This document shows, one piece after another, positions 3,647 to 60,439 of a stretch of DNA of 64,000 bases. The stretch lies in the NCBI GenBank assembly GCA_014727915.1, contig WJMO01000006.1:130137-194136 (forward strand), in the 5' to 3' direction. The DNA comes from Candidatus Altiarchaeales archaeon (lineage in GTDB: Archaea > Altiarchaeota > Altiarchaeia > IMC4 > SCGC-AAA252-I15). A program made the translations under genes and the position numbers. The stretch's first letter is position 1. Every line of letters starts with the position of its first letter. The notes below the pieces were generated by a model. It did not search any database. It was not told where the DNA came from and worked only from the letters and a program-made list of their open reading frames with translations.

Positions 3647-3793
3647 AGCCTCAGGCGAGAATTGAACTCGCGACCTTTGCCTGTTTGGGACCTTACGGAT
3701 TTTATGCTTCTTTCTTTCCGTGGACGCTTTCTTTCTTCGCGAGAAAGAAAGGGCCCTACCAAGGCAACGCTCTACCGACTGAGCTACTGAGGC
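3647..3793 (-). tRNA. tRNA-Thr (anticodon GGU) with ~74-nt intron at canonical 37/38 position
   Basis: Minus strand reads GCCTCAG-TA-GCTC-AGTCGGTA-GAGC-G-TTGCC-TTGGTA[intron]A-GGCAA-AGGTC-GCGAG-TTCAATT-CTCGC-CTGAGGC-T; all four stems pair; intron contains perfect hairpin CTTTCTTTCTCGCGAAGAAAGAAAG. Confidence 0.65.
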
Positions 3794-13451: not shown

Positions 13452-14576
13452 TTGCAATTATATACCATGCGGTGGTTGGTGGCGTCAGCTCTAGTTTTAT
13501 TCGTCTCGGGTTGCATATTCGAGGATCCGGTGATATCCGAGGCTGTTGAGAAGAAGGACCCGGGACTCTGCCTGACGCTCGAGGAATACAGGAGCAGGAG
13601 GGAGTGCTTCCACAAGGTCGCGGTGGCAGCCGGGGACCGGAGCATATGCGACGAATACAGCAAGGAACTCTACGGTGACGCCTGGCAGATGTGCCTTTCA
13701 TCGGTCGCAGTGGAAAATGACGACGTAAGCATCTGCGACAGCATCAACACAACCCTGCATAAGAGCGGGTGCAAGAGCGACATAGCGATAATGCGCAACT
13801 CGACAAGCCTCTGCGAACAAGCTGAGGAAGAACGTGATAGAGACGATTGCAGGTCGCAGATATCAATCAACACAAACAACGTAAGCCTATGCCATGAGGT
13901 AGAGAACGAGTTCACTAAAGACAATTGCATGGGAAAGCTGGCCAAGAAAAACAGCAATCCACAGTTATGCCAGCACATAGAAAGCCGGGTTATGCGGGAC
14001 GTATGCTATGATGAACTGGCGGTTGTTACAGACGATCCTGGGGTCTGCGATGGCATGAGCGAGGGCAATAGCATCGCATGCAAGGCAAAAGTCACCGGAG
14101 ACTCCGGCCTATGCGACAGCCTGGACCCCGGCAAGTTCAACGTCGACCAGTGCATATTGGACGCTGCCAGGAACTCCCTGAAGGAAAGCGACTGCGCTAG
14201 GATAGGGACCGAACACATGAGGCAGATATGCTACAATAACATCGGGGGGGCATCGGGCAGGCCTGAACTCTGCGACAAATCAGGAGACTTGAAGGGGTTC
14301 TGCCTGAAAGACGCCGCCATCTCAGCAGCTAATCCAGAGTACTGCAAGGGCATCAATGAGGTTGGACAGAGAGACAAGTGCATAACGGAAGCAACGGAAG
14401 CCTCCGACACCATGAAGGGATGCGACCTCATTGAAGACGACGAGCGTCGTGAGGACTGCATGAGCAACTGGGTGGAGGAACACCCGGAAGAGCAGGGGCC
14501 TATTTACCGGACGAAGGAAAGGATAAAGGAGAAGGTGGGGGAAGTGGTTGCCAACGCACTTTTGGGTGAGAACTAA
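13452..14576 (+). CDS. Lipoprotein built from ~28-aa cysteine-pair repeats
   Basis: Signal peptide with lipobox-like SGC; recurring spaced Cys pairs across ~300 aa; acidic. Confidence 0.55.
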   Translation: MQLYTMRWLVASALVLFVSGCIFEDPVISEAVEKKDPGLCLTLEEYRSRRECFHKVAVAAGDRSICDEYSKELYGDAWQMCLSSVAVENDDVSICDSINTTLHKSGCKSDIAIMRNSTSLCEQAEEERDRDDCRSQISINTNNVSLCHEVENEFTKDNCMGKLAKKNSNPQLCQHIESRVMRDVCYDELAVVTDDPGVCDGMSEGNSIACKAKVTGDSGLCDSLDPGKFNVDQCILDAARNSLKESDCARIGTEHMRQICYNNIGGASGRPELCDKSGDLKGFCLKDAAISAANPEYCKGINEVGQRDKCITEATEASDTMKGCDLIEDDERREDCMSNWVEEHPEEQGPIYRTKERIKEKVGEVVANALLGEN

Positions 14577-14869: not shown

Positions 14870-14923
14870 ATACTACTTCATCAAATAAAACCATTTATAT
14901 TGAACAATGACTAATTATGTTGC

Positions 14924-15109
14924 ATGGAAAGCTCTGAAAGCGGGAAAAAAGACAGATATAAGTGCAAAGTATGCGGTTACGTGTACGACCCAGAGAAGGG
15001 AGACCCTATTTCTAATATAAAGCCCGGAACAGCCTTCAAGGACATTCCAGAAGGGTGGACGTGCCCGGTTTGCGGCGTTGGAAAAGACCAGTTCGAGAAG
15101 ATAGAGTAG
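14924..15109 (+). CDS. rub: Rubredoxin
   Basis: [10 protein letters not shown]...W.CPVCG signature; TATA-like TTTATATT ~20 nt upstream. Confidence 0.85.
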
Positions 15110-15157
15110 GTTACTCAGGGCATACCAGCCAGTATTTATGCACAGACAACAATAGAT

Positions 15158-15176
15158 AGTTTACAAAAGTAACCAT
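15158..15176 (+). promoter_or_regulatory. Conserved promoter motif AGTTTACAAAAGTAACCAT (copy 1), upstream of Dx-like/FDP operon
   Basis: Identical 19-mer at 18123-18141; contains inverted repeat TTAC-N4-GTAA; 55 nt upstream of GTG 15231. Confidence 0.5.
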
Positions 15177-15230
15177 ATTTTGAGTGGGTGGTGTATTCAT
15201 CCAATTTCATAGCAGATGGAGGTGACCTAA

Positions 15231-15443
15231 GTGGCCAGACAAGGCGACAGACACAAGTGCGGAGTATGTGGCGTGGAGATCATATGCGTAGAAGGCTGCG
15301 GTTGCAGGAAACCCCGTCTGGTATGCTGCGGGAAGGCGATGAGGAAAAAGACAGGCCGGAAGACAGTGAAGAAGAAGGCCGAGAAAAGCGTTAAGAAGAC
15401 CGCTAAGGCCAAGATTAGGAAGGCGGACAATAAAAGGATATGA
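15231..15443 (+). CDS. Desulforedoxin-like (CxxCG...CC) protein with lysine-rich C-terminal tail
   Basis: GDRHKCGVCGVEI...LVCCGKAM matches desulforedoxin Fe(Cys)4 motif; ~30-aa K-rich tail; GGAGGTGA SD 7 nt upstream of GTG. Confidence 0.6.
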   Translation: MARQGDRHKCGVCGVEIICVEGCGCRKPRLVCCGKAMRKKTGRKTVKKKAEKSVKKTAKAKIRKADNKRI

Positions 15444-15449
15444 GGGCGT

Positions 15450-16640
15450 ATGATGGCATGGGAGATGAAAGACGGGATACATAATGTCGGAGCGGTGGAC
15501 TGGGACAGGAGATTGTTCGACGAGCTGATACCACTGCCCGACGGCACAAGCTACAACGCATACCTGGTGAGGGGAAGCGAGAAGACCGCGCTCATAGACA
15601 CGGTAGACCCAACAAAAGAGGATGAGCTGTTCGAGAACCTGGAGAGAACAGGAGTGGACCGGCTGGACTATGTTATACCCAACCACGCTGAACAGGACCA
15701 TTCGGGGACGATACCCAAGGTCCTGGAGAGATACCCAGAAGCAAAGGTAGTGACCAACGGAAAATGCAAGGAGTTCCTGATTGACCTGCTGCACATACAA
15801 GACGACAAGTTCCAGGTGGTGGAGGACGGCGAAACCCTCTCACTTGGGGACAGGACGCTTGAATTCATAATAGCACCGTGGGTCCACTGGCCCGAGACCA
15901 TGCTCACATACCTAAGAGAGGACAGGATACTCTTCTCATGCGACCTGTTCGGGTCCCACCTGGCAACCAGCGACAAGTATGTGAAAGACGAATCCAAGGT
16001 GTTGGAAGACGCCAAGAGATACTACGCGGAGATCATGATGCCCTTCAGAAAGCTGATCAACGGGCATCTGGAGAAGCTGAGGGGATACGACATCGAAGTC
16101 ATAGCAGCCAGCCACGGACCATTGTATGACAGGCCTGAATCCATAATGGAGGCATACAGGGATTGGACCTCAGACGACGTTAAAAACGAGGTGGTGATAG
16201 CGTACGTGTCGATGCACGGAAGCACCGAGAGGATGGTTGAACGCTTCGCCAACACCCTTATCGAGCGCGGCATCCGGGTAAGGCCGTTCAACCTGGCCGG
16301 GTCTGATGTGGGAGAGCTTGCTATGGCTCTTGTGGACGCTGCAACCCTGGTTGTCGGCACCCCAACGGTCCTGGCAGGACCGCACCCCGCAGCCGTTTAC
16401 GCGGCATATCTCGCGAACGCATTGAGGCCCAAGACACGGTATGCGACGGTCATAGGATCATACGGGTGGGGGGGAAGGACAGTGGACCAGGTCAAGAGCA
16501 TGCTGCAGAACCTTAGCGTCGAATTCCTCGAGCCGGTGATAGTCAAAGGGCTTCCGAGAGCGGATGACATGAGAGAACTCGACCGGCTGGCAGACAGCAT
16601 ACTTAAAAAGCACCAGGAACATAACATCATAGGTGAATAG
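15450..16640 (+). CDS. fprA: Flavodiiron protein (metallo-beta-lactamase + flavodoxin domains)
   Basis: 396 aa; diiron site HAEQDHSG; C-terminal flavodoxin-like domain. Confidence 0.85.
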   Translation: MMAWEMKDGIHNVGAVDWDRRLFDELIPLPDGTSYNAYLVRGSEKTALIDTVDPTKEDELFENLERTGVDRLDYVIPNHAEQDHSGTIPKVLERYPEAKVVTNGKCKEFLIDLLHIQDDKFQVVEDGETLSLGDRTLEFIIAPWVHWPETMLTYLREDRILFSCDLFGSHLATSDKYVKDESKVLEDAKRYYAEIMMPFRKLINGHLEKLRGYDIEVIAASHGPLYDRPESIMEAYRDWTSDDVKNEVVIAYVSMHGSTERMVERFANTLIERGIRVRPFNLAGSDVGELAMALVDAATLVVGTPTVLAGPHPAAVYAAYLANALRPKTRYATVIGSYGWGGRTVDQVKSMLQNLSVEFLEPVIVKGLPRADDMRELDRLADSILKKHQEHNIIGE

Positions 16641-17117
16641 GTGCCTGAAATGGAAGGGGAAGAACTGCGTAAGAGCATACAGGAGTACATCGAAGGGCAC
16701 AACGTCTGCACCATAGCGGTGACAGACGGCGAGAACCCCTCGGCCCATACCATGTACTACGTGAGCCACGGCATCCACATATACCTGGAATCAGACCCCA
16801 ACTCCCAGAAGATACACGTGCTAAATGCAAACCCCAGGATATCATTGACCATAGACGAGGACTACCAGGACTGGAGGCAGATAAAGGGCATACAGCTTTT
16901 CGGACGCGCCAACCTGACGGACGAAAGGCATGCCCCAAGGCTTCAGGAAGCCTTCTCGAGGAAGTTCCCCCACATAAACGACCTCGGAGGCATACCCAAT
17001 CATCACATCTTCATAGAGGTAATACCAGAGAAGATATACTACATGGACTTCACTGAAAAGTTCGGGCAGAGGAACATATACTACGTTGACGAGAAAAAAT
17101 CCGTTATAAACTGGTGA
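16641..17117 (+). CDS. Pyridoxamine 5'-phosphate oxidase-like FMN-binding split-barrel protein
   Basis: 158 aa; PNPOx-like pattern; ATG overlaps upstream stop. Confidence 0.6.
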   Translation: MPEMEGEELRKSIQEYIEGHNVCTIAVTDGENPSAHTMYYVSHGIHIYLESDPNSQKIHVLNANPRISLTIDEDYQDWRQIKGIQLFGRANLTDERHAPRLQEAFSRKFPHINDLGGIPNHHIFIEVIPEKIYYMDFTEKFGQRNIYYVDEKKSVINW

Positions 17118-17177
17118 CCCGTCAGTTACTTGACCGTAACCCTTGCATTTATACGCCTGTAAGACGGATAATGACCT

Positions 17178-17822
17178 GTGAAAGAGGGACTGCCGCTTCT
17201 CGCGTTGCTTGTCATATTCTCAGGGTGCCTTCAGACGCAGGTAATAGGGTTGGACGGGGTTGAAGTCCGGGACTACGAGGGCAAGGACCTGTCCTCCATA
17301 AACGACTTCAGGGAGAACTCCATCCGGGGGCCGCAGCAAATAAACGCAAGCACATACAGGTTGGAGGTCACTGGATTGGTCGACAACCCGGGGGAATACA
17401 CCTACGAGGACATCCTGAACCACCAGCGATACTCCAAGATAGTAACCCTATACTGTGTTGAAGGATGGGATGTCACCATACTATGGGAGGGAGTGCTCGT
17501 CAGGGACCTGTTGGAAGAAGCGGAAGTCATGCCGGAAGCCGACACCGTGATATTCCACGCCCAAGACGGTTACAGCACGTCACTGCCCCTCAGCTACTTC
17601 ACGGAAAACGACATAATACTCGCCTACAGCATGAACAACGTCACCCTCCCGGCGGAGCGGGGGTTCCCCTTCCAGCTTGTCGCAGAGGACAAGTGGGGAT
17701 ACAAGTGGGTGAAGTGGGTTACTGAAATCGAGGTTTCGGACGAGCCGGACTACAGAGGATACTGGGAGACCCGCGGATATAACCAGGACGGGTCCGTTGA
17801 CGGCCCCGTATTCGAGAGATGA
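17178..17822 (+). CDS. Molybdopterin-dependent oxidoreductase (sulfite oxidase/MsrP-YedY family), lipoprotein
   Basis: Signal peptide + SGC; Mo-ligand context LYCVEGWDV. Confidence 0.7.
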   Translation: MKEGLPLLALLVIFSGCLQTQVIGLDGVEVRDYEGKDLSSINDFRENSIRGPQQINASTYRLEVTGLVDNPGEYTYEDILNHQRYSKIVTLYCVEGWDVTILWEGVLVRDLLEEAEVMPEADTVIFHAQDGYSTSLPLSYFTENDIILAYSMNNVTLPAERGFPFQLVAEDKWGYKWVKWVTEIEVSDEPDYRGYWETRGYNQDGSVDGPVFER

Positions 17823-17852
17823 GCTTAAATAGACAGCATCACATTCAAGACT

Positions 17853-18062
17853 ATGGCAGTGGCTGAGATCGCATACGCGGAATTCGCGGGCGTTGCGTTG
17901 ATAGTCTGGTCCGGGATATCCTCGCTGGCCCTGGTGGTTCTGACCGCCCTAACGGGCAGGAACTTGCTGCCTGTGAAATACCACAGGAAGCTGGCTTTTG
18001 CTGCGATCTTCTTCGCATTTGGCCATGGCATCCTGGCTGCAGCCGCAAACCTTGGGCTCTGA
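17853..18062 (+). CDS. Small membrane protein (2 TM), hypothetical
   Basis: 69-aa hydrophobic ORF directly after the Mo-oxidoreductase gene. Confidence 0.35.
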   Translation: MAVAEIAYAEFAGVALIVWSGISSLALVVLTALTGRNLLPVKYHRKLAFAAIFFAFGHGILAAAANLGL

Positions 18063-18122
18063 ACAAGGTAACCAATAGGATACCCCAAGGTTTATATTGG
18101 ACAACAACCAAATAGAGAATGC

Positions 18123-18141
18123 AGTTTACAAAAGTAACCAT
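18123..18141 (+). promoter_or_regulatory. Conserved promoter motif AGTTTACAAAAGTAACCAT (copy 2), upstream of glutaredoxin/TrxB operon
   Basis: Identical to 15158-15176; extended similarity (acaacaa...tagag) on the 5' side; ~42 nt upstream of ATG 18183. Confidence 0.5.
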
Positions 18142-18182
18142 GTCTGGTTTTATATGTGTTAAAAGAAGTAGGTGATGCAAGT

Positions 18183-18419
18183 ATGGACAAGATAAAAGTG
18201 TACTCGACCCCGACATGCCCCTGGTGCAAGAAGCTGAAGGGATGGTTGGACGAGAAAGGAGTCAAATACGAGGACTTTGACGTCTCCTCAGACCACGAGG
18301 CAGCCCGTGAGATGATAGAGAAGAGCGGACAGATGGGAGTGCCCCAGACAGACATCGGAGGCAAGGTCATAGTGGGATTCGACCCGGACTCCATCGAGAA
18401 GGAATTAGAAGATGCATGA
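18183..18419 (+). CDS. Glutaredoxin/NrdH-like thiol-disulfide oxidoreductase
   Basis: CPWC active site; ATG 18183 preceded by GGTGA; track start 18156 is probably too early. Confidence 0.75.
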   Translation: MDKIKVYSTPTCPWCKKLKGWLDEKGVKYEDFDVSSDHEAAREMIEKSGQMGVPQTDIGGKVIVGFDPDSIEKELEDA

Positions 18420-19314
18420 TACAGTGATCGTGGGAGGGGGAATAGCAGGTTTGACCGCGGCACTGTACGCCTCAAGGAAGCGGATGGACTACCGCATAAT
18501 CTCCTCAGAGATGGGAGGCCAATTCTACGCCAGCGGGGAGATACTCAACTACCCCGGAGTCGTCGAAACCGACGGCGTTGAATTCCAGAAGACCATGGAA
18601 GAGCAGATGAGGAAAAACGACGTCGAAGTGGTCAGAGAGACAGTCGAGAAAGTGGAAAGGGCAGGAGAAGACTTCAACGTGATTACAGACAAGAGAGAAT
18701 ACGAGACGAAGACCGTAATATTAGCAACTGGAGCCCGCCCAAGGAAGCTTGGAGTCCCAGGGGAGGAGAAGCTCCTGAAGAAGGGCGTGACATACTGTAG
18801 CATATGCGACGGACCCCTCTTCAATGCCATGGACGTGGCAGTCATAGGCGGGGGAAACTCCGCACTGGAGGCGGTGGACTTCATAGGGGACATAGCATCC
18901 AAGATATACGTGCTGACGAACGAGGCGGAATTCAGAGCGCACGAATACCTCCAGGAAAAGGCAAAGGACAACCCAAAGGTGGAGGCAATGTTCAACGCAG
19001 ATATCAAGGAGATAGCAGGTGATGAGTTCGTCAATTCGTTGAAGTACGAGGCAGACGGCAGGGAGAGGACGATAGATGTGAAAGGCGTGATAATCGAGAT
19101 AGGCAGGACGCCGAACACTGAGAATTTCAAGGACCTGGTCGAAACAGACAATGAAGGCCACATAAAAGTTGACTGCCGCGCGCAGACCAGCACAGCCGGT
19201 GTGTTCGCAGCGGGAGACTGCACGGACGGGCACGAATACCAGTACGTGATAGCCGCAGGCCAGGGCTGCATGGCCCTTCTAAAGGCCGCACGCTACCTAG
19301 CGATGAACAGGTAA
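18412..19314 (+). CDS. trxB: Thioredoxin-disulfide reductase
   Basis: Two GxGxxG/A dinucleotide motifs and redox-active CSICDG. Confidence 0.85.
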   Translation: MHDTVIVGGGIAGLTAALYASRKRMDYRIISSEMGGQFYASGEILNYPGVVETDGVEFQKTMEEQMRKNDVEVVRETVEKVERAGEDFNVITDKREYETKTVILATGARPRKLGVPGEEKLLKKGVTYCSICDGPLFNAMDVAVIGGGNSALEAVDFIGDIASKIYVLTNEAEFRAHEYLQEKAKDNPKVEAMFNADIKEIAGDEFVNSLKYEADGRERTIDVKGVIIEIGRTPNTENFKDLVETDNEGHIKVDCRAQTSTAGVFAAGDCTDGHEYQYVIAAGQGCMALLKAARYLAMNR

Positions 19315-19335
19315 ATAACATATTAGGTGATGTAA

Positions 19336-19824
19336 ATGGGCACAAGAGGACGGGAAATCGTCGGTTTGGACGTTGAAAAGCTCATAGTAGAGCTGAACAG
19401 GGCATTGTCAGACGAATGGCTGGCATACTACCAGTACTGGATAGGGTCGAAAGTCGTTGTGGGCCCGATGAGGGACGCGGTCGTGGCGGAGCTGACAGAG
19501 CACGCTAACGACGAGCTAAGGCACGCCGGAATGCTCGCCGACAGGATAATGCAGTTGGAAGGCGCGCCAGTGCTGAAACCAGAGGAATGGTATGACATGT
19601 GCAACTGCGGATACGACAGCCCAGATGACCCAGCAGTCAGGAAGATACTAGACCAGAACATCAAAGGCGAGCAGTGCGCGATAGACGTGTACAACAAGAT
19701 CATGAAGATGACAGAGGGCAAAGACCCCATAACATACCAGATGGCCTTCGAAATCATGAGAGACGAGGTAGAGCACGAAGACGACCTGCAAGCCATCGCA
19801 GAGGATATCAAAGGAATCAAATGA
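19336..19824 (+). CDS. Ferritin-like/Dps-like diiron protein
   Basis: 162 aa; four-helix-bundle ferritin-like carboxylate/His pattern. Confidence 0.65.
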   Translation: MGTRGREIVGLDVEKLIVELNRALSDEWLAYYQYWIGSKVVVGPMRDAVVAELTEHANDELRHAGMLADRIMQLEGAPVLKPEEWYDMCNCGYDSPDDPAVRKILDQNIKGEQCAIDVYNKIMKMTEGKDPITYQMAFEIMRDEVEHEDDLQAIAEDIKGIK

Positions 19825-19835
19825 GGTGAAAAAGA

Positions 19836-20219
19836 ATGAGCACAAAAGAAAGGGGCGAAGTGTACAAGTGCAACGTCTGCGGCAACATCGTTGAGGTGCT
19901 GATCGTTGGCGGTGGAGAGCTAGTATGCTGCGAAAAGCCCATGGAACTTTTAGAGGAGAAGACAGAGGATGAGGGCAACGAAAAACACGTGCCAGTCATA
20001 GAGAAGACCGAGGACGGCGTTAAGGTGAAGGTCGGGAGCGTGCCACACCCCATGGAGGAAAAGCACCACATCCAATTTATCGAAGTGCACTCTGACGGGA
20101 TGATACACCGGAGATACCTGAAGGCAGGAGACAAGCCAGAAGCGGATTTCATACTGTCCTCGGAAGTGCAGAAGGCCCGGGAATACTGCAACATACACGG
20201 CCTCTGGGGTAGCGGATAA
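19836..20219 (+). CDS. dfx: Desulfoferrodoxin (2Fe superoxide reductase)
   Basis: N-terminal desulforedoxin motif CNVCGNIV...VCCEKPM; SOR domain KHVPVIE...HH...CNIHGLW. Confidence 0.85.
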
Positions 20220-20220
20220 G

Positions 20221-20367
20221 GTGACGGGAAAGAGGCACTGGCGTTGCAACGTCTGCAACGACATACACTACGGCAACGCAGGCCCCAAAGTCTGCCCTAC
20301 CTGCAACGTGGAGAACGCATACGTCGAGGTAGACACTGAAGAAGCCAGGAAAGTGATGGGACTATGA
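20221..20367 (+). CDS. Small rubredoxin-like zinc-ribbon protein (48 aa), not in ORF track
   Basis: GTG start 2 nt after dfx stop; WRCNVCNDIHYGNAGPKVCPTCN (CxxC-x16-CxxC); stop overlaps ATG of next gene (ATGA). Confidence 0.5.
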   Translation: MTGKRHWRCNVCNDIHYGNAGPKVCPTCNVENAYVEVDTEEARKVMGL

Positions 20368-20630
20368 ACAAGGAGGAACTGCTCGAGGCCTGGAAGAGGT
20401 TCACGGAAAAGAACGACTTCAGGCTGAACCCGGACAAGGAGCACGTGGACATGATACTGGACGGCGTTCTAGCTAACGAGAAGGAACACGGCCTGAAGCT
20501 CTGCCCCTGCAGGATCCGGGACGGCACCAGAGAAAGAGACCTTCAGCTCATCTGCCCCTGCAACTTCAAAACCCACGAAACATGGGCTGAGAAGGGACAA
20601 TGCTGGTGCGGGCTTTTCGTGAAAAGATGA
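20364..20630 (+). CDS. Ferredoxin:thioredoxin reductase catalytic-subunit-like protein
   Basis: CPC...CPC...CWC spacing characteristic of FTR catalytic subunit. Confidence 0.7.
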   Translation: MNKEELLEAWKRFTEKNDFRLNPDKEHVDMILDGVLANEKEHGLKLCPCRIRDGTRERDLQLICPCNFKTHETWAEKGQCWCGLFVKR

Positions 20631-20642
20631 GCCATGCACGCC

Positions 20643-21023
20643 CTAGGTTATGGCCATGTGGCATTGGGCCCTGACAGAAGGGTCCGATATCCTATCGCAT
20701 AGTTTACGGTTGCCAGTCGCCACCCCGACCCTGCCGATGCAAAGTTCCCTATGTTCCGGTACAGAGACCTTATCGCATATTTTAACGTCCATGAGCTCAG
20801 AGGCGGTGTTAATGTAACACAGGTCCTTGAGATTTCCCTCACGCCCCTCACACGCACCCGGGTCAGTGTACTCTGCAGTGGGCTCGCCCGCGTCATCTTC
20901 CGCCCGTGGGTCCTCTGGCATCATATTCGGCCTTGAAGGCACTGCAACGGCAGCCCCGCCAACACCCTCCCCTCCAATGCACCCGCATAAGAGCAGAATA
21001 GAGAGTACTGCGAAGAATCTCAT
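20643..21023 (-). CDS. Lipoprotein with cysteine-pair repeats (same family as 13452..14576)
   Basis: Signal peptide + CGC; DLCYINTAS...KICDKV...RELCIG...RKLCDRISDP...AQC. Confidence 0.5.
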   Translation of the reverse strand: MRFFAVLSILLLCGCIGGEGVGGAAVAVPSRPNMMPEDPRAEDDAGEPTAEYTDPGACEGREGNLKDLCYINTASELMDVKICDKVSVPEHRELCIGRVGVATGNRKLCDRISDPSVRAQCHMAIT

Positions 21024-21029
21024 AGCATA

Positions 21030-21587
21030 CTATTCGACATACCTGTTCTTATATGCGAACTCGCTGGCTTCCTTCCGGGGAGGCCTCTGCTTCTCCCCCA
21101 GTCTCTGCTTCTCGCTCAGATAGTCGGGGACGGACTCACTGTGCCTGCCCACAACCAACAAGGCTATGACCTCGTATTCGCCGGGTATGCCAAGAACCTC
21201 GCGCACCTTCTTGGGGCTGTAGCCCGCGATGGGATGGGCCACCAAACCTAGTTCGGTGGCTTGGAGGATCATGAAGGCCGTCGCCAAACCGACGTCGAAG
21301 TTGTTATAAACGCGATCCTTTATCACGCAGTCATCGTCTGGCTTGCTGAAGACAGCCACTATCAGCGAAGCCTCCCTAGCCCACCTATTGCCATCTGACA
21401 GGGCCCCATGAAGCTCGGACAACACCGCAGGATCGTATGCGAGCACGTAGCGCCAGGGCTGGTTGTTGTTGCAGGAGGGAGCGAGGCGGGCGGCAGACGC
21501 AAGATCATCGACCAACTCTTCCGTTACCTCGAACTTCTCCAGGGCACGGTAAGCCCTCCTCCCCTCAATGGCCTCGCGGACATCCAC
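21030..21587 (-). CDS. Nitroreductase-family protein
   Basis: 185 aa; nitroreductase-like FMN-binding pattern (RRAYRAL...PSCNNNQPW). Confidence 0.7.
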   Translation of the reverse strand: MDVREAIEGRRAYRALEKFEVTEELVDDLASAARLAPSCNNNQPWRYVLAYDPAVLSELHGALSDGNRWAREASLIVAVFSKPDDDCVIKDRVYNNFDVGLATAFMILQATELGLVAHPIAGYSPKKVREVLGIPGEYEVIALLVVGRHSESVPDYLSEKQRLGEKQRPPRKEASEFAYKNRYVE

Positions 21588-21588
21588 T

Positions 21589-22089
21589 TTACATCGTAAC
21601 GGTCTTGAAGTCGTGGAACTCCCCCGTTTCGGTCACGAACTCCGCCTCAGACTCGAGTATGGAACGGTGCTTCTCCTCCTCCTTGACCATCTTTTCGAAG
21701 AATATCTTGGACTCGTCGTCGGGGGCGTTCGCGGACATCCAATTGTAGAGGTCGATGCTGTTCTCCTCCGCCTTTATGGCGATGTTCAGCGCATCCAAGG
21801 CGTCAGCCATGTCGTCCAAGCTGCCGCCTGGAACTTTCTCCTCGAAGACGCCGCTAGGGTCGTATTCCTTCTTCGAATCCACGTACATGCAATACTGCTC
21901 GTCGTATAACCGCTTGTATACTTCAGCGATGTTGTTAAAATGCACCCGCTCCTCGGAGGCGAGATGCTCGAACATTGCACTACCGTCCTTGTTGTATGTC
22001 TTCTTCGCGCAGCCCAGGTAGAAAGCCTCACCCTCCAACTCCAGGTCCAACGCCCTGTTAAAACCCTCGCAAACGTCCTTCACATCCAT
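21589..22089 (-). CDS. Rubrerythrin-family ferritin-like diiron protein (no rubredoxin domain)
   Basis: E..E..H diiron pairs; ATG at 22089 preferred over TTG 22110; TATA-like box ~22 nt upstream. Confidence 0.65.
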   Translation of the reverse strand: MDVKDVCEGFNRALDLELEGEAFYLGCAKKTYNKDGSAMFEHLASEERVHFNNIAEVYKRLYDEQYCMYVDSKKEYDPSGVFEEKVPGGSLDDMADALDALNIAIKAEENSIDLYNWMSANAPDDESKIFFEKMVKEEEKHRSILESEAEFVTETGEFHDFKTVTM

Positions 22090-22244
22090 TTTGAAACCAC
22101 ATTTTTTCAAATTTTTTAAAATATTTCCGAATTATTTAGGAATTTCCCAAAACAATTTATAACCCGTAGGGTATATAAAAGACTTGGTATGCGCGGAGTT
22201 ACCTGGTTCTATTTTAAAAGAGAACCACATCTGATTAAAACACG

Positions 22245-22826
22245 ATGAAACAGGCCATGACCGTCCTTTTGATGTTTTCGCTGGTGTCCATGTCGTCCGC
22301 CCAGTGGAGCGACTGCCCCTTCGACATAGTGAACGACAGCTCGCCGGGACTCTGCGGCCGATACGTCGACACCGGAGGGGACAGCATATGCGACCGCAGC
22401 CAACCATACCCGGAAGAGACCACCCCCGACTCGGAGGATGGTGAAACCCGAGGAGACGAGGTTTTGAAGTCCCAGCTGATCCCTACGATAAGCAGGAACC
22501 AGAACGCCAGGAAAGTCTACAACATGATACCTTTGGTCATATTCCTAACAGTAGTATACCTGGTGACCCTGAGGGCGGCGGACAGGGGCACAATATCACT
22601 AAGAACCCACAGGAGGATATGGAACGTGATGCTGCTGATCTCGTTCCTAGTATCCGGCCTGCTGGGAGTCCTGCTGGTGCTCAGGATAAACTATGGGATA
22701 ATCATACAACCACCATTCAACATGCTATACTGGCATGTGGAAGCCGGGATAGCTATGGCTACCGTCTCCATCTTCCATATACTCTGGCACATCCAATACT
22801 TCAAGTCCATTCTGTCGAAACCCTAG
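22245..22826 (+). CDS. Membrane protein with N-terminal Cys-rich extracytoplasmic motif, hypothetical
   Basis: Signal peptide, CPFDIVNDSSPGLCGRYVDTGGDSICD, then TM helices. Confidence 0.45.
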   Translation: MKQAMTVLLMFSLVSMSSAQWSDCPFDIVNDSSPGLCGRYVDTGGDSICDRSQPYPEETTPDSEDGETRGDEVLKSQLIPTISRNQNARKVYNMIPLVIFLTVVYLVTLRAADRGTISLRTHRRIWNVMLLISFLVSGLLGVLLVLRINYGIIIQPPFNMLYWHVEAGIAMATVSIFHILWHIQYFKSILSKP

Positions 22827-22870: not shown

Positions 22871-23518
22871 TTGGGCGAAGTCATCGTTTTCACGAAGGTC
22901 CCCGAGAGGGGTTATGTGAAGACGAAACTGCAGAAGGAGCTACAATCCCATGTAGTCGAAGAGCTCTATACGGCATTGCTGAAAGACGCTTTGGAAAAGC
23001 TCGGGGATTACACCCCATATGTGGCCTACTATCCTGAGCGGAAGCAGCAGATGCTCTGGACCATACTAGGGGACAGGAACTACATAGTCCAAAGGGGTAA
23101 GGGCATGTGGGAGCGGATAGTCAACGTCTTCAACGACTTCTACAGGATGGGATTCGACTACGTGGCGGCTGTTAACTGCGACGCCCCGTCTCTGACGAAG
23201 GGGCATGTTGAAGAGGCTTTTGCCCTGATGAGGGACAACGACCTAGTGCTAGGACCCGCCTATGACGGAGGGTTCTATCTGATCGGCGGCAGGGGTTTGA
23301 AACAGGGTTTGTTCGAGGGAGCAGAGTGGAAATCGAGGAACGCATTGGAGACGATCGCAGAGAACGCCCGCAAACAGGGTTTGAATGTGGCCTACACCGA
23401 GAGATTGAGGGACATAGACACTCCGGAGGACGTTAAAGCCGTGTGGGAGAGCCAGAAACTTGACAAGAACGGGAAAACCTATGAGATACTTGCCAGGATA
23501 AACAAACAAATCGGTTGA
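22871..23518 (+). CDS. DUF2064-like nucleotidyltransferase-fold protein
   Basis: IVFTKVPERGYVKTKL N-terminus and DIDTPEDV near C-terminus. Confidence 0.5.
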   Translation: MGEVIVFTKVPERGYVKTKLQKELQSHVVEELYTALLKDALEKLGDYTPYVAYYPERKQQMLWTILGDRNYIVQRGKGMWERIVNVFNDFYRMGFDYVAAVNCDAPSLTKGHVEEAFALMRDNDLVLGPAYDGGFYLIGGRGLKQGLFEGAEWKSRNALETIAENARKQGLNVAYTERLRDIDTPEDVKAVWESQKLDKNGKTYEILARINKQIG

Positions 23519-23587
23519 ACACCCCCCCCCACGATAACCTCAAGGTTACTATCAAGTATTTTAAACGCTCCTGCCATATCTCAGTCT

Positions 23588-24067
23588 ATGGGCAGATTGC
23601 TGGCATTCCTCATCCTAGCTTCGCTCATTGCGAGCGGATGCCTTGATAGCACCAGCGAAAACAGAAGAGACGCGGTCGAGACGCCTGCAACCCACGGTAA
23701 AGAGCCCGCCACAAACACTGAAGTTATGATCCCTGAGATAGACGGTTCCAAACACTACACTGAAGTTGACGCCCGCCAGGCCAAGAGGATATACGATGAA
23801 GTCGAAGGCGTTGTTGTTGTTGACGTCAGGGGATGGCCGCTCTACGACGCGGGACACATACCAGGAGCCATAAACATTCCCGAGAAGGAGGTCGAAGGCC
23901 TGGGCTCACTGGACAAGGAAGCAACGTACCTGATATACTGCGGCGGGAACGGGCAGAGCATACGCGTAGGGGAGGAGATGGGCAGGAGAGGGTTCAAGAA
24001 CGTCTACAGGCTAGTGGACGGGTACGCCGCCTGGAGGAGGGAGGGATACCCGAAGGAGAAGACCTAA
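23588..24067 (+). CDS. Rhodanese-domain sulfurtransferase, lipoprotein
   Basis: Signal peptide + SGC; rhodanese fold with active-site loop YCGGNGQS. Confidence 0.65.
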   Translation: MGRLLAFLILASLIASGCLDSTSENRRDAVETPATHGKEPATNTEVMIPEIDGSKHYTEVDARQAKRIYDEVEGVVVVDVRGWPLYDAGHIPGAINIPEKEVEGLGSLDKEATYLIYCGGNGQSIRVGEEMGRRGFKNVYRLVDGYAAWRREGYPKEKT

Positions 24068-25470: not shown

Positions 25471-26097
25471 ATGAGAAAGCTGCTTAGGGAGATCGAATCC
25501 CTAAAGGCTTCGCCCGTCGGCGATAGCATACGTGAGAGGATGGGAGAGTTCGAATCCTGCGGCAGGGAAGACTGTTGCACCCTGTTCAAAGAGCTGTGCT
25601 TCTGCATACTCACGGCGAACTTCACGGCCGAACGGTCCATCAGGATACAAGAGGCAGTCGGCGACGGCTTCATCAATCTATCGGAGAAGAAGCTGGCCAA
25701 GAAGCTGAGGGAACTGGGTCACAGGTTCCCGAACGCCCGCGCAGGATACATCGTGTCGGCGAGGAAGCACAAGAAGCCACTAGAGAAGGCGTTGAAATCC
25801 TTCAAGGACGAAACTGACCTGAGGGATTGGCTGGCCGAGAACGTCAAAGGCCTGGGCTACAAGGAGGCTAGCCACTTCCTGAGGAACGTAGGGTTCAAGA
25901 ACGTGGCGATAATTGACTTCCACATAGTGGACCTGCTGGTTAAGCACGAGCTCATAGATAGGCCGAATACTATGACGAAGAGGAGATACCTTGAGGTGGA
26001 GGAGGTGTTGAAGAGGATAGCAGAGGAGGCAGGCGTGACCCTTGCCGAGCTGGACCTCTACCTATGGTACATGGAGACCGGCAGGATATTAAAGTGA
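25471..26097 (+). CDS. 8-oxoguanine DNA glycosylase/AP lyase, Ogg2-type (HhH-GPD)
   Basis: 208 aa; FCILTANFTAE block and HhH region. Confidence 0.65.
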   Translation: MRKLLREIESLKASPVGDSIRERMGEFESCGREDCCTLFKELCFCILTANFTAERSIRIQEAVGDGFINLSEKKLAKKLRELGHRFPNARAGYIVSARKHKKPLEKALKSFKDETDLRDWLAENVKGLGYKEASHFLRNVGFKNVAIIDFHIVDLLVKHELIDRPNTMTKRRYLEVEEVLKRIAEEAGVTLAELDLYLWYMETGRILK

Positions 26098-26115: not shown

Positions 26116-26985
26116 ATGGTGGATGACAGTATCAGAGAAGACATCCTGAAAGCCCAGGAGAACGAGATAACGGAGTACCTCATCTACAGGAGACTTGCGG
26201 AAGCCACCAGCGACCGGAAAAACAGCGAATTGCTTAGGAGGATAGGCGAGGACGAGCTGGCCCACTATGAATTCTGGCGAGATCACAGCGGAGAGGACGT
26301 TAAACCCGACACGTTCAAGGTGTGGCGATACACCATGGCCGCTAAGCTGTTGGGTCTGACGTTCGCGGTGAAGCTGATGGAGCAGGGTGAGGAACGGGCG
26401 CAGATAGCATACGATGATATCTCAAAGCACATCCCAGAAGCTGCTAGGATAATCGAGGAGGAGGACGAGCATGAAGGGCAGCTGCTGGGCATGTTGGACG
26501 AGGAGAGGCTGAGGTACATGGGGTCTGTCGTGCTGGGACTGAACGACGCCCTCGTGGAGTTGACCGGCGCACTGGCAGGGTTCACACTCGCCTTCCAGGA
26601 CAGCAGACTAGTTGCTGTTACGGGTTTGATAATGGGTTTCGCGGCGTCGCTTTCCATGGCAGCCAGCGAGTACCTGGCAACCAAGTCGGAGGATGATGGC
26701 AAACACCCGGTTAAAGCCTCGGTGTACACCGGCTCCGCTTATGTGCTGACCGTGGCGCTTCTGATACTGCCCTACCTAGCATTAACCAACATCTACCTGA
26801 GCCTGGCGTTCACGTTGGTGAACGCAATCCTGGTGATCGCGTTCTTCACATTCTACATCTCAGTCGCGAAGGACCTAAGCTTCAGAGAGCGGTTCCTGGA
26901 GATGGCGGGCATCAGCATGGGAGTGGCCCTGCTCACCTTCATAATCGGGTACGCTGTAAGGTCCGTGTTCGGAGTCGACTTCTAA
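26116..26985 (+). CDS. VIT1/CCC1-family Fe/Mn transporter with N-terminal ferritin-like domain
   Basis: Ferritin-like (E...EDEHEGQ) N-terminus fused to VIT1-type TM domain. Confidence 0.7.
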
Positions 26986-32397: not shown

Positions 32398-32871
32398 TCA
32401 TTTAAGGACCACTATGTTTGTCAGGCCTCTCCTACGCCTCTCTAGCAGGTTCTTGGACTCCAGCCGGTCCAGGTTCCGGGTTACCTTAACCTTTGACAGC
32501 CCGGTCTTCTCGGATATCTCACTCTGGAAGATTGTGCCTCCAGAGTCTGAGATCAGCTGGTAGACTGTCTTCTCATCCCCATCCAGGCTTCCGAGGTTCT
32601 CCAGCCACTTCTCCCTGCCTGAAGGCTCCTGATCCAATCTGCCGCCCTTCAAAGCCAGGTATATGCCGATGAAGAACAGTATCACGACACCAGCCAATCC
32701 GCCATAGAAGACGGGAGGGACCTTGAAATGGATCATCTCGCAGCTTTCCCCGCAGGTGCAGGACTGGGTGCTCATATCGGCGAGAGTGTCTAGGAGAACT
32801 GACAATAACGCCACCAGAAAGACCGCCAATAGTATCAGCACAATCCCTACTTCCCGCAATCCGGCCCTCAT
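32398..32871 (-). CDS. Membrane-anchored wHTH regulator with CxCxxxC motif
   Basis: TM - STQSCTCGESCEM - TM - C-terminal wHTH (KTGLSKVKVTRNLDRLESKNLLERRR). Confidence 0.55.
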   Translation of the reverse strand: MRAGLREVGIVLILLAVFLVALLSVLLDTLADMSTQSCTCGESCEMIHFKVPPVFYGGLAGVVILFFIGIYLALKGGRLDQEPSGREKWLENLGSLDGDEKTVYQLISDSGGTIFQSEISEKTGLSKVKVTRNLDRLESKNLLERRRRGLTNIVVLK

Positions 32872-42875: not shown

Positions 42876-43559
42876 CTAGTTCAACTTCACCATGGCGCTC
42901 ATCCCGACCCGCCTCTTCTCGACAACGCCCATGCCCTCGAGTGTGTCTATGTTCCGTGACACGCTGGACTTGGGCAGGTTCAGCTGCTCACATATCTCCG
43001 CCTGGTTCACGGGAGCATTCCTCTCCCTGAGGAACTCGACTATCATCCTCTGCCTGTCGGTGAGCATACGATCGTCAAAGCCAGCACCTGCCTTGGAAGG
43101 CCTCCACCATAGATACATCACCGCAGAGGCGGCAGCCAACAAGGCTATGACGGCAGCATACAGTGTGCTGTTGTCAGGTGAACTTTCACGGCCGATGGTG
43201 TACTGGACCAGGACATTGAAGGGCTCATCCTCCCCAACCCCCGACACCTTAACCCTCCCATCCTCGGAGGATATCCTGAAGCCCCGGGGGGACATGGCAT
43301 AGTTGACTTCCGCCCCTTCGGGCAGCTTGACAGAGTACACGTACTCGGTGAAATCACCGTCCAAGCTGATGTTAAGCAGCCAGTAGCCGCCGCGCTTGAA
43401 CGTGTACTGGTCGTAGACCCCGTCAGCCAGCAGGGGGTGGTTGCTGGTGCCAGATATTGTAGCGGCTCCAGACCCGCTGACATCAAATGATACGTCAGCG
43501 TAGTAGGCCTCGGCCGAGGCGAAACCAACCAATAAGATGAAAAGCAAAACCCGCTTCAT
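42876..43559 (-). CDS. Membrane-anchored wHTH regulator with extracytoplasmic domain (paralog family)
   Basis: Signal peptide (start probably MKRVLLF at 43559), external beta-rich domain, TM, C-terminal wHTH. Confidence 0.55.
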   Translation of the reverse strand: MKRVLLFILLVGFASAEAYYADVSFDVSGSGAATISGTSNHPLLADGVYDQYTFKRGGYWLLNISLDGDFTEYVYSVKLPEGAEVNYAMSPRGFRISSEDGRVKVSGVGEDEPFNVLVQYTIGRESSPDNSTLYAAVIALLAAASAVMYLWWRPSKAGAGFDDRMLTDRQRMIVEFLRERNAPVNQAEICEQLNLPKSSVSRNIDTLEGMGVVEKRRVGMSAMVKLN

Positions 43560-43719
43560 CGTGGAGAATATATATGCCAGACATCCTCTTAAAGGCATAA
43601 GCCACAACCGACAGTTAAAATTATTTATAATATTTTCAAAATAATTTAAAATTTTACATTAATACTTTGTCTTCCATGTTGGGCTGGCCGGTATTTTTAT
43701 TCCCTGTTCCCATGAGTTC

Positions 43720-57920: not shown

Positions 57921-58007
57921 GCCCCCGGAGCAGCCACCAACCACAACCAACAATAAGAGCCAAATAGCATATGTGCTGGTTTTAGGCTAAAAAAGGCGTT
58001 AGGGACC
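57921..58007 (+). repeat. Direct repeat A flanking hicBA cassette
   Basis: gcccccggagcagccaccaaccacaaccaa...gagccaaatagca...gttagggacc; imperfect copy at 58749-58877. Confidence 0.6.
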
Positions 58008-58069
58008 AATAAATCAAAGGTTTAACATTCTTAAATAGTATTTAATTATCTTACATTCTTATATCTTTT

Positions 58070-58303
58070 ATGATGAAAAAAACTCAATTTCCCCTTGTTA
58101 TTGAAAAAGATGAGGATGGGTTCTATGTTGTAGAATGCCCAGTGTTGGAGGGGTGTTATTCTCAGGGTAAAACCTTGGATGAGGCGATGAAGAATATTCG
58201 GGAAGTCATTGAGATCTGTCTTGAGGAATCGTCCACTAAAGATTTTCTGAAAAACTATCACCCAGTAGAGTTTAGCTTCCATACTATTACTGTTGGTTCA
58301 TGA
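58070..58303 (+). CDS. hicB: HicB-family antitoxin (UPF0150-like)
   Basis: FPLVIEKDEDGFYVVECPVLEGCYSQGKTLDEAMKNIREVIE typical of HicB N-domain. Confidence 0.7.
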   Translation: MMKKTQFPLVIEKDEDGFYVVECPVLEGCYSQGKTLDEAMKNIREVIEICLEESSTKDFLKNYHPVEFSFHTITVGS

Positions 58304-58527
58304 TGGCATCGAAGCTGCCCATCGTTTCTGGCAAACAAGCAGTCAAAGCGTTCAACAAACTTGGTTATGCTGTTATTAGAAGGAGGAGTAGCCATATTCG
58401 CCTGGAACATGAAAGTAAGAAAAAGATAACAATCCCAGACCACAAAACACTAGGAAAAGGAATACTAAGAAAACTAATCCGCGATGCTGAGATAACAATA
58501 GAAGAATTCAACAAATTACTAAAGTAA
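58300..58527 (+). CDS. hicA: HicA-family toxin (YcfA-like)
   Basis: 75 aa; SGKQAVKAFNKLGYAVIRRRSSHIRLEH pattern; start overlaps hicB stop. Confidence 0.7.
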   Translation: MMASKLPIVSGKQAVKAFNKLGYAVIRRRSSHIRLEHESKKKITIPDHKTLGKGILRKLIRDAEITIEEFNKLLK

Positions 58528-58748
58528 AATTTTCACCCCAATTCTTTAAAGGAGTTCAACACCCCCCAAATCAACGAATCCTCATCCGACTCAATGAAGC
58601 TCTCGAAGCGATCGAAAAGGAAGCCAACAAATTCTTCGTGCAATTGTCCAAGAACAAGCAGTTCAGAACTTGGCTGGAGAAGACGTTCACAGCCCCGAAG
58701 ATCGAGGCGGGGTTGAGTTTGCCCTTTTTTTCGGTTGCCGGTTTCGAA

Positions 58749-58877
58749 GCCCCAGGAGCAACCACCAACCCACAACCAAGAAAAAGAGCCAAATAGCAAA
58801 TCAGCTAGAATTAAGCTAAACCCGTCGAAACTACCAACACACAACCAAGAACAGAAGCCAACAGCGTGTTAGGGTCC
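58749..58877 (+). repeat. Direct repeat B flanking hicBA cassette (with internal partial duplication)
   Basis: gccccaggagcaaccaccaacccacaaccaag...gagccaaatagca...gttagggtcc. Confidence 0.6.
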
Positions 58878-58885
58878 TTTTTCTG

Positions 58886-60415: not shown

Positions 60416-60439
60416 TTTAGCCTATATCGAGTTCCTTTT

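Follow-up and report, generated by a model that had tools for sequence, protein, structure and literature searches.

Rubredoxin-centred gene clusters are well known in anaerobes: Desulfovibrio vulgaris has rbo-rub-roo, Moorella thermoacetica a five-gene cluster (Rbr-FprA-Hrb / Dfx-Rd), Pyrococcus furiosus the genes for superoxide reductase (SOR), rubredoxin (Rd) and rubrerythrin (Rbr) in the order SOR-Rd-Rbr, and Clostridium acetobutylicum the PerR regulon. The locus described here, at positions 14924-22110, belongs to a 64,000-nucleotide stretch of DNA (henceforth the window) from a Candidatus Altiarchaeales archaeon (assembly GCA_014727915.1, contig WJMO01000006.1, positions 130,137 to 194,136 of the forward strand) and carries the NCBI locus tags GF416_04550 to GF416_04620. 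As in the clusters of Desulfovibrio, Moorella, Pyrococcus and Clostridium, genes for Rd, desulfoferrodoxin (Dfx, a SOR), the flavodiiron protein FprA and an Rbr-type diiron protein adjoin one another, and a related island from Altiarchaeota (L005) begins with a Fur/PerR-family gene. The island differs from these clusters in being larger (15 genes) and archaeal (Altiarchaeota/DPANN-related), and in having no recognisable NROR or Hrb reductase. It also adds a pair of glutaredoxin-like (Grx-like) and thioredoxin-reductase-like (TrxR-like) proteins, a split pair resembling ferredoxin:thioredoxin reductase (FTR), a DPS-like ferritin-fold protein (DPSL), a molybdenum cofactor (Moco) enzyme, small membrane proteins, and a desulforedoxin-like protein with a lysine-rich tail that we term DxK.

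We consider it probable that this region serves its host, an anaerobic Altiarchaeales archaeon, as a chromosomal locus for defence against oxidative stress and for repair. Its genes most likely fall into four parts, namely a rubredoxin-centred reduction set, a Grx/TrxR-like disulfide system, a split pair resembling ferredoxin:disulfide reductase (FDR), and the Moco enzyme with a small membrane protein. Because anaerobes are already known for clusters of this type, the novelty of the island is modest: it is a large, newly documented Altiarchaeota example of a known locus type, with accessory parts that are not paradigm-changing. Both the catalytic families and the consolidation of loci directed against reactive oxygen species (ROS) are well established in anaerobes, and current understanding is not overturned. 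The locus does supply a compact parts list for how nominally strict-anaerobe uncultured archaea could survive exposure to oxygen, and this list bears on the possible habitats of Altiarchaeota and DPANN. Our search of the literature on Altiarchaeota together with SOR, rubrerythrin or flavodiiron proteins found no description of such an island; one paper goes no further than naming "genes associated with oxidative stress" in the Altiarchaeales core.

Gene content, clustering and conservation of the island

The island comprises 15 closely packed open reading frames (ORFs) in two convergent units, 12 on the forward strand and three on the reverse (Table 1). The forward unit runs from rubredoxin and DxK through FprA, a PNPOx-like protein, the Moco oxidoreductase and a 69-aa membrane ORF to the Grx-like, TrxR-like, DPSL, Dfx, 48-aa Rd-like and FTR-B-like genes; the reverse unit holds a 126-aa Cys-rich lipoprotein-like protein, a nitroreductase and a rubrerythrin-like protein. 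Genes within the units are spaced at -8 to +30 nt, and some starts and stops abut or overlap; gaps of 54, 121, 60, 93 and 134 nt are AT-rich and contain TATA-like boxes. We judged domain calls by the curated cut-offs of Pfam, with the equivalog cut-offs of NCBIfam as a second library. The first-pass annotation of this DNA had described about 14 genes within some 7 kb and named 13 functions. The dense island is indeed there, with one gene more than that count; the 69-aa membrane ORF and the 126-aa Cys-rich ORF had been omitted. All 13 named functions are present, and profile hidden Markov model searches place 12 of them above the Pfam curated thresholds, with NCBIfam in agreement, while the desulforedoxin-like protein fails in Pfam and is rescued by pairwise and fold similarity (see below). 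The end of the island had been set at 22110, which is too short for the redox and repair neighbourhood, as this runs to about 33 kb. In sequence, the catalytic modules are all intact, with their metal and redox ligands conserved. The window also encodes the archaeal genes aRF1 and Nre. The Altiarchaeales lineage is treated as anaerobic in published descriptions (PMC4975002, PMC8407392). Together with the 12 assignments that pass and the rescued thirteenth, this makes an anaerobe with a consolidated oxidative-stress locus, as originally proposed, the best reading.

Genomes of anaerobes commonly encode small Fe-S and flavin proteins, and on this ground unrelated small redox genes might be supposed to have come together by chance. 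Classical anaerobe ROS families, however, account for 8 of the 15 island genes and for none of the 45 Pfam-scanned ORFs in the rest of the window (Fisher p = 2.5e-6; the scanned ORFs of the window are most, not all, of its ORF set). The overlapping or abutting starts and stops, and the recurrence of the gene order in independent genomes, likewise argue against chance, which synteny effectively refutes and to which we assign next to no probability.

The synteny comparison that had been proposed for the island shows its gene order recurring in other genomes. In L005 the order is FUR-Rbr-Rd-RbrL-FprA-PNPOx-Ferritin-Grx-TrxR-Dfx-Rd48-FTRB, followed by a convergent nitroreductase and then by DUF2064 and rhodanese genes, as in the window. 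Orthologues in L005 are 58-70% identical for island genes and 36-48% for DUF2064/rhodanese; the rubrerythrin-like protein (RbrL), which sits there between Rd and FprA, is 48% identical. A second locus (L008) has Ferritin-Grx-TrxR-Dfx-Rd48-FTRB and, further on, a nitroreductase and then a 75-aa homologue of the 69-aa ORF followed by Ogg and VIT1. Shorter versions are Rbr-Grx-TrxR-Dfx in Woesearchaeota (L009) and Grx-FprA-TrxR (L006), and a Joint Genome Institute metagenome contig (L026) has the end of FTRB followed by DUF4405-Mo enzyme (64% identical)-52 aa-DxK-160 aa-Ogg. This recurring order suggests that the island is typical of the lineage and rearranges around a conserved Grx-TrxR-Dfx core, and the Fur-family gene at the head of the L005 island fits a peroxide regulon.

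The alternative that the island is a mobile cassette recently acquired from bacteria or methanogens could draw on FprA, which outside the source genome has its nearest relatives (67-73% identity) in a taxonomic mix of Methanoculleus, WOR-3, Zixibacteria and Altiarchaeota. The fluid gene content would also fit, as the L005 and L008 islands lack the Moco enzyme, the 69-aa ORF and DxK. Against this, the GC content of the island (51-56%) is the same as that of its flanks, and the scans of the window revealed no integrase, transposase or flanking tRNA, the only tRNA being about 11 kb away. The gene order is moreover common to three other Altiarchaeota metagenome-assembled genomes at 55-70% identity, typical of vertical divergence, and the nearest relatives of the TrxR-like protein (60-71% identity) are all from DPANN or Altiarchaeota, namely Altiarchaeota, Woesearchaeota, Aenigmarchaeota and Nanoarchaeota. 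Recent acquisition is hence very unlikely, and a lineage-typical island is the reading that we retain. A search of species-representative genome contigs with the TrxR-like protein recovered bacterial loci at 35-39% identity only, and no close genome; it was of no use for synteny.

Table 1. Genes and sequence elements of the island and its surroundings (positions in the window)
Feature	Position	Strand	Evidence or remarks
374-aa Cys-repeat protein	13452-14576	+	
Rubredoxin, 61 aa	14924..15109	+	Pfam Rubredoxin 8.6e-25, 87 bits; NCBIfam RubredRD 96 bits > 90
19-nt element AGTTTACAAAAGTAACCAT, inverted repeat TTAC-N4-GTAA, copy 1	15158..15176	+	gap before DxK
DxK, 70 aa, desulforedoxin-like Cys-rich domain and Lys/Arg-rich tail	15231..15443	+	BLASTP, codon usage, predicted fold
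Class-A flavodiiron protein (FprA/ROO type), predicted O2 (or NO) reductase	15450..16640	+	Pfam ODP/MBL and Flavodoxin_1
PNPOx-like split-barrel flavoprotein	16641..17117	+	Pfam PNPOx_N 7e-12, 46 bits
Inverted repeat GTTAC-N6-GTAAC	17125..17140	+	upstream of TATA-like ATTTATAC before the Moco-enzyme gene
Single-domain molybdopterin (sulfite-oxidase-fold) oxidoreductase, 214 aa	17178..17822	+	Pfam Oxidored_molyb 3e-38, 131 bits
69-aa two-helix membrane protein, H44-x13-H58	17853..18062	+	NCBI hypothetical GF416_04570; best codon-usage frame
19-nt element AGTTTACAAAAGTAACCAT, copy 2	18123..18141	+	before grx, downstream of TATA-like TTTATATT (18091-18098)
Glutaredoxin-like, YruB family, CPWC active site	18156..18419	+	Pfam Glutaredoxin 3e-20, 73 bits; TIGR02196 97.9 > 88.6
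Low-Mr TrxR-like flavoprotein, CSIC redox disulfide	18412..19314	+	Pfam Pyr_redox_2 3e-46, 158 bits
DPS-like (DPSL) ferritin-fold protein	19336..19824	+	Pfam Ferritin 2e-27, 96 bits
Desulfoferrodoxin (2Fe superoxide reductase)	19836..20219	+	TIGR00320 (dfx_rbo) 193.5 > 146.9
Free-standing 48-aa rubredoxin-like domain, rubrerythrin type	20221..20367	+	Pfam RUBY_RBDX 4.8e-8, 33 bits
FTR catalytic-subunit-like [4Fe-4S]/disulfide protein, 88 aa	20364..20630	+	Pfam FeThRed_B 1.8e-18, 67 bits > 22
126-aa Cys-rich lipoprotein-like protein	20643..21023	-	NCBI hypothetical GF416_04605; no family match
FMN nitroreductase-family protein	21030..21587	-	Pfam Nitroreductase 9e-19, 69 bits
Rubrerythrin-like diiron four-helix-bundle protein without Rd domain	21589..22110	-	Pfam Rubrerythrin 9e-12, 46 bits
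193-aa membrane protein, DUF4405-like C-terminus (H-x13-H-x3-H)	22245..22826	+	possibly associated with the island
8-oxoguanine DNA glycosylase (Ogg)	25471-26097	+	Pfam Ogg-HhH 5e-62
VIT1-family iron transporter	26116-26985	+	Pfam VIT1 5e-12

Putative rubredoxin-linked reductases and flavoproteins

In the first part of the proposed mechanism, reduced rubredoxin would supply three terminal reductases. FprA has the class A flavodiiron architecture, with an N-terminal metallo-β-lactamase-like domain and a C-terminal flavodoxin domain, and its diiron ligands (HxExDH...H...D...H) are present in the segments NHAEQDHSG, HWPE, CDLFGSH and ASHG, which align to 1ycf and 2ohh. Its closest PDB entries are the Moorella FprA 1ycf (6e-69, 236 bits), the F420H2 oxidase 2ohh (7e-64, 220 bits) and ROO 1e5d (193 bits), and the adjoining rubredoxin gene favours Rd over F420H2 as its electron donor. 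Desulfoferrodoxin is a full 2Fe-SOR, with a desulforedoxin-type centre I (CxxC...CC) and a centre II of four His and one Cys; its two Pfam domains, Desulfoferrod_N (63 bits) and Desulfoferrodox (76 bits), both score above cut-off, and the translation carries the motifs EKHVP, HPMxxxHH and CNIH. The rubrerythrin-like protein shows EERVH and EEEKH in its translation, and its nearest PDB entry is TM1526 (1vjx, 2e-6), a protein of unknown function; in having no Rd domain it departs from the classical rubrerythrins (NF045767). The starts of this protein and of the PNPOx-like protein probably lie a few codons inside the maximal ORFs, since the products of the maximal ORFs are absent from the protein collection. 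FprA would reduce O2 to water and desulfoferrodoxin would reduce superoxide to H2O2, and the H2O2 would be consumed by the Rd-less rubrerythrin-like protein and, with Fe2+, by DPSL. In the PDB the latter is closest to 2vzb, a Dps-like protein of B. fragilis (2e-44), with archaeal DPS/DPSL proteins next (1e-16 to 1e-20), and it scores 85 with the NCBIfam model Arch_DPS against a cut-off of 250; it probably acts in H2O2-consuming iron sequestration. Ahead of grx in L005, L008, L010 and L011 lies a ferritin-family gene (170-173 aa) whose product has no BLASTP match to the DPSL of the window at 1e-4; this looks like a non-orthologous replacement.

Two flavoproteins, the PNPOx-like protein and the nitroreductase, are the best candidates for an NAD(P)H- or F420H2-dependent entry of electrons into rubredoxin. 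The PNPOx-like start directly follows the fprA stop (gap 0), as does a 65% identical orthologue in L005, which lies immediately after fprA; in NCBIfam it has weak matches to the YhbP and F420-dependent PPOX models. The nitroreductase, which has orthologues in L005 and L008, matches residues 145-318 of the Thermotoga maritima peroxiredoxin (Prx)-nitroreductase hybrid (PDB 4eo3) at 2.4e-43 and is thus clearly homologous to its nitroreductase domain. Unlike this domain it is free-standing, and no peroxiredoxin was found among the Pfam-scanned ORFs of the window, whereas Prx is present in the relatives L010 and L011. The two domains of the hybrid are reported to act independently (PMC8395237).

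The nitroreductase and PNPOx families are functionally broad, TrxR and Grx also serve housekeeping roles (PMC5627308), and among NCBIfam models FprA scores best with "anaerobic nitric oxide reductase flavorubredoxin", yet at 254 against a cut-off of 635. These points would suit a general thiol/redox-homeostasis and nitrosative/xenobiotic-stress locus that is not mainly directed at O2 and ROS, in which FprA would reduce NO, xenobiotics would be the substrates of the nitroreductase and PNPOx-like protein, and the TrxR-, Grx- and FTR-like proteins would provide housekeeping redox regulation. However, desulfoferrodoxin, the rubrerythrin-like protein and DPSL are without a known role outside ROS and iron-peroxide chemistry, the neighbouring genes include an 8-oxoguanine glycosylase, and related islands add Rbr, Prx, superoxide dismutase (SOD) and a Fur-family regulator. 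We regard this explanation as distinctly unlikely and favour an oxidative-stress locus.

Several observations nevertheless weigh against an oxidative-stress locus working through the four parts proposed here. Every island function is assigned by homology and synteny alone. The scores of FprA with its PDB relatives are close, which would also allow an F420H2 oxidase or an NO reductase in place of an Rd:O2 oxidoreductase. The Pfam-scanned ORFs of the window include neither an NROR-type rubredoxin reductase nor a peroxiredoxin, catalase or SOD. The N-terminus of the Moco enzyme shows no twin-arginine (Tat) motif in translation, and the protein scores far under the cut-offs of the NCBIfam models for SorA, SoxC and MsrP (59.7 against 207 for MsrP); the L008 homologue of the 69-aa ORF does not adjoin a Moco enzyme. 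Lastly, neither the 19-nt element nor the GTTAC/GTAAC inverted repeat (Table 1) was found in the related loci examined, and it is the lack of conservation of the 19-nt element that counts here.

Putative disulfide-reducing systems and the lysine-tailed protein DxK

The Grx-like protein, whose PDB matches are Grx and NrdH, probably starts at ATG 18183 (78 aa), because AGGAG lies 9 nt upstream and homologues are 77-80 aa long. The TrxR-like flavoprotein encoded by the next gene aligns over its full length to its nearest PDB entry, 3f8p, and contains CSIC and GGGNSA; with its FAD/dinucleotide-binding GxGxxG/A motifs and CxxC disulfide it belongs to the broad low-Mr TrxR-like family. Its score with the equivalog model of NADPH-dependent thioredoxin reductases, TIGR01292, is 307 bits, below the cut-off of 343. 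In place of HRRD, part of the motif that recognises the 2'-phosphate of NADPH (HRRD/HRRxxxR), it has TNEA, and among its 120 closest homologues none has HRR at this position, while 101 have CSICDG. Loss of HRRD marks thioredoxin reductases that do not use NADPH, the donors being NADH, ferredoxin, F420 or unknown (PMC5627308). The donor of the TrxR-like protein would thus be other than the canonical NADPH, with NADH as the simplest guess from sequence. A parallel is offered by T. maritima, where the TrxR has a preference for NADH and a Grx-like protein as its substrate (PMC8395237, citing Couturier 2013 and Yang & Ma 2010); there as here, a TrxR-like flavoprotein is partnered by a Grx-like redoxin and not by thioredoxin. 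The pair of Grx-like (CPWC) and TrxR-like (CSIC, FAD) proteins would keep protein thiols and peroxidase partners reduced.

A second disulfide-reducing system is suggested by the 48-aa Rd-like and FTR-like genes, which overlap by 4 nt. The nearest PDB entry of the FTR-like protein is the Methanosarcina acetivorans FDR 4tpu (2.6e-16), with the CPC...CPC...CWC cysteines aligned; these also align to 7pwe. Pfam and PDB searches found no FTR variable chain with the FTR-like gene. The resemblance to the M. acetivorans enzyme extends from the FTR-B-like catalytic domain, with its aligned CPC...CPC...CxC cysteines, to the association with a rubredoxin-type domain. This domain is C-terminally fused in 4tpu, whereas in the island it is encoded by a separate, upstream and overlapping gene of 48 codons. 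Its first PDB matches are the C-terminal domains of rubrerythrins (9fj2, 1.9e-5), to which it is nearer than to the Rd domain of FDR (4tpu, E 0.047). An origin of the pair by frameshift or pseudogenization is ruled out, because the same split arrangement is kept in three genomes (the window, L005 and L008). Such a split FDR-like pair, of 48-aa Rd-like and 88-aa FTR-B-like proteins, would couple low-potential ferredoxin to the reduction of disulfides.

DxK falls short of the Pfam model Desulfoferrod_N (PF06397), at 12.8 bits against 23 (E 0.095), and has an E-value of 0.0099 with dfx_rbo. Its sequence nonetheless matches the N-terminus of the window's own desulfoferrodoxin in BLASTP (E 2e-5) with the CxxC...CC cysteines aligned, and an AlphaFold2 model has predicted local distance difference test values of 84-90 over residues 1-40. 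The top PDB match of this model is the D. gigas desulforedoxin 1dxg (TM-score 0.86 on the target, root-mean-square deviation 1.3 Å, 42% identity), and in Foldseek 1dxg and the N-terminal domains of desulfoferrodoxins are the top matches with probability 1.00. The gene has a GTG start with GGAGGTGA 7 nt upstream and lies in the frame with the best codon usage. DxK is hence a real gene, with a predicted desulforedoxin fold. Its cysteines are C10, C13, C23, C25, C32 and C33, plus C19, and 17 of the 33 residues of its tail are Lys or Arg, giving the protein an isoelectric point of 10.4.

Relatives of DxK are rare: a HMMER scan of 1.84 billion representatives recovered only 15 at E < 1e-3. The family has the signature G[DE]xxxCxxCG-x8-CxC-x6-CCxxxM, followed by a Lys/Ala-rich tail, and C10, C13, C32 and C33 are invariant across 18 aligned sequences. 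While DxK shares the CxxC...CC pattern and a superposable predicted fold with desulforedoxin (1dxg) and the N-terminal domain of Dfx, it differs from desulforedoxin in two nearly invariant CxC cysteines, a two-residue insertion and the Lys/Ala-rich tail of 10-70 residues. A metagenome scan with a four-sequence alignment of the family returned nine loci, mostly with ordinary desulforedoxin or Dfx; the only true members are those of L013 and L017, and the classical tail-less desulforedoxin genes of L012 and L019 are without the extra features of DxK. Desulforedoxin-like variants containing CGC occur in L014 and L015 (3914-4150); in place of a Lys-rich tail, these have four to five consecutive cysteines at their end (GGCCCCS / GGCCCCC).

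The genomic contexts of DxK place it within antioxidant or oxidative-repair clusters in six of eight informative cases. Besides Rd-DxK-FprA in the window, these contexts include DxK-Fe/Mn SOD-HxlR (P0241), Rbr-Rd-Prx-DxK-Ferritin-Grx (L010), Prx-DxK-Ferritin-Grx-FprA (L011), DxK-ferritin-like-Prx-Rbr (L017) and Mo enzyme-52 aa-DxK-160 aa-Ogg (L026-28). A distant member in L021 lies beside genes for NifU and a cysteine desulfurase and is separated from Rbr by a few genes, and distant members in L023-25 have no antioxidant neighbour. Our literature search found no paper describing desulforedoxin-like proteins with Lys-rich tails. In other prokaryotic proteins Lys-rich tails modulate DNA binding or associate with polyphosphate granules, according to two reports (PMC3553676, PMC9239181), and on this account we suggest that DxK, a putative accessory protein of the Fe(Cys)4 type, would be anchored by its basic tail to a polyanion such as DNA.

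A bolder, combined proposal is that DxK represents an undescribed desulforedoxin-fold family of Fe or Fe-S proteins with a polyanion-binding tail in oxidative-stress defence, and that the HRR-less TrxR-like protein is the physiological electron source of SOR and rubrerythrin in Altiarchaeota and DPANN that lack NROR. The latter idea arises from the conservation of the Grx-TrxR-Dfx triad in these archaea. We offer the combined proposal tentatively, and consider it rather unlikely that both halves hold. If they did, DxK might, for example, supply DPSL/ferritin-type proteins at the nucleoid with electrons or iron, or form a DNA-tethered redox shield, and electron transfer from a TrxR-like protein to superoxide reductase would be an undescribed route for SORs.

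Membrane proteins, candidate control elements and flanking genes

The fourth part of the mechanism, and its weakest step, is a membrane-associated Moco enzyme that, with one or more small His-bearing membrane proteins, would reduce oxidised substrates at the envelope in the manner of MsrPQ. The enzyme has a hydrophobic, lipobox-like segment at its N-terminus, and its PDB matches span the Moco domain of SorA only. The arrangement resembles that of E. coli MsrPQ (YedYZ) in that a sulfite-oxidase-fold Moco protein with a hydrophobic N-terminus adjoins a small membrane protein with heme-type histidines. It differs in that the island protein is the Moco core alone, and that its partner has two helices instead of six; with a low MsrP score, no Tat signal and no six-helix MsrQ partner, the system is not an MsrPQ proper. 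The analogy thus lends weak support to an MsrPQ-like electron path through the Moco enzyme and membrane protein(s).

The 69-aa protein is possibly a small b-type cytochrome, a miniature relative of MsrQ or ferric reductases. Its 75-aa homologue in L008 is 40% identical (E 1.8e-14). It has no BLASTP match to the DUF4405 protein of L026, which is encoded next to the Moco-enzyme orthologue there, and what links it to DUF4405 is just the H-x13-H pattern and a sub-threshold match to Ferric_reduct (E 0.016). An antisense ORF of 121 aa at 17851-18216 was rejected for its worse codon score and its absence from the protein collection. The 193-aa membrane protein, whose gene is divergent from the rbr-like unit, has no Pfam match; it carries an N-terminal Cys motif, CPFD...PGLCGRYVDTGGDSICD, and in BLASTP its histidines align with those of the L026 DUF4405 protein (E 0.011). 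Experiments have shown DUF4405 and small FezC-type proteins to be heme-b cytochromes related to MsrQ (PMC11334425), and the 193-aa protein is possibly a heme-b electron conduit.

The intergenic gaps point to probably four or five promoters in the island. The TATA-like TTTATATT at 14894-14901, ahead of rubredoxin, suggests by its position that the rubredoxin transcript is leaderless. The 19-nt element occurs in two exact copies in the 64 kb, against 0.01 expected, each with a TATA-like box about 20 nt upstream; it is a candidate for a shared archaeal repressor operator that overlaps the transcription start. The inverted repeat GTTAC-N6-GTAAC has its sole match in the window before the Moco-enzyme gene, yet at least one match arises in 12 of 100 shuffles, which makes it a weak candidate. 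No Fur-family gene is present among the Pfam-scanned ORFs, in contrast to the one that heads the island in L005.

The 126-aa Cys-rich protein is paralogous to the 374-aa Cys-repeat protein (BLASTP E 5e-7, with many repeat high-scoring pairs), which has no family match either. The two genes flank the forward unit, and their products have lipoprotein-like N-termini and a repeat of about 30-35 aa with regularly spaced cysteines. Beyond the rbr-like unit, 22871-24067 encodes a DUF2064/TIGR04282 "arsenosugar biosynthesis glycosyltransferase"-type protein and a rhodanese with a lipoprotein-like N-terminus; the corresponding genes also follow the island in L005 (16228-18656), with a radical-SAM DUF3641 gene between them. 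The Ogg-VIT1 pair of the window is also found after the L008 island, and Ogg occurs in L026 as well. The segment 25471-33726 further encodes a Cu-type P-type ATPase (CopA) with two HMA domains, an FtrD-like membrane Fe-S protein, a DsbA-like protein, DsbD_2 with a cupredoxin-like domain, a MarR/DUF7343 regulator and a 4Fe-4S protein. The window encodes two MarR/DUF7343 regulators in all, at 32398-32871 and 42876-43607. Elsewhere in the window, a tRNA gene at 3647-3793 on the reverse strand is 147 nt long and presumably contains an intron (Rfam tRNA, 58 bits). At 58000-64000 the GC content falls from about 52-55% to about 40-44%; a 1089-aa protein with a CARDB domain is encoded there, and the segment may be foreign DNA or a region for surface proteins.

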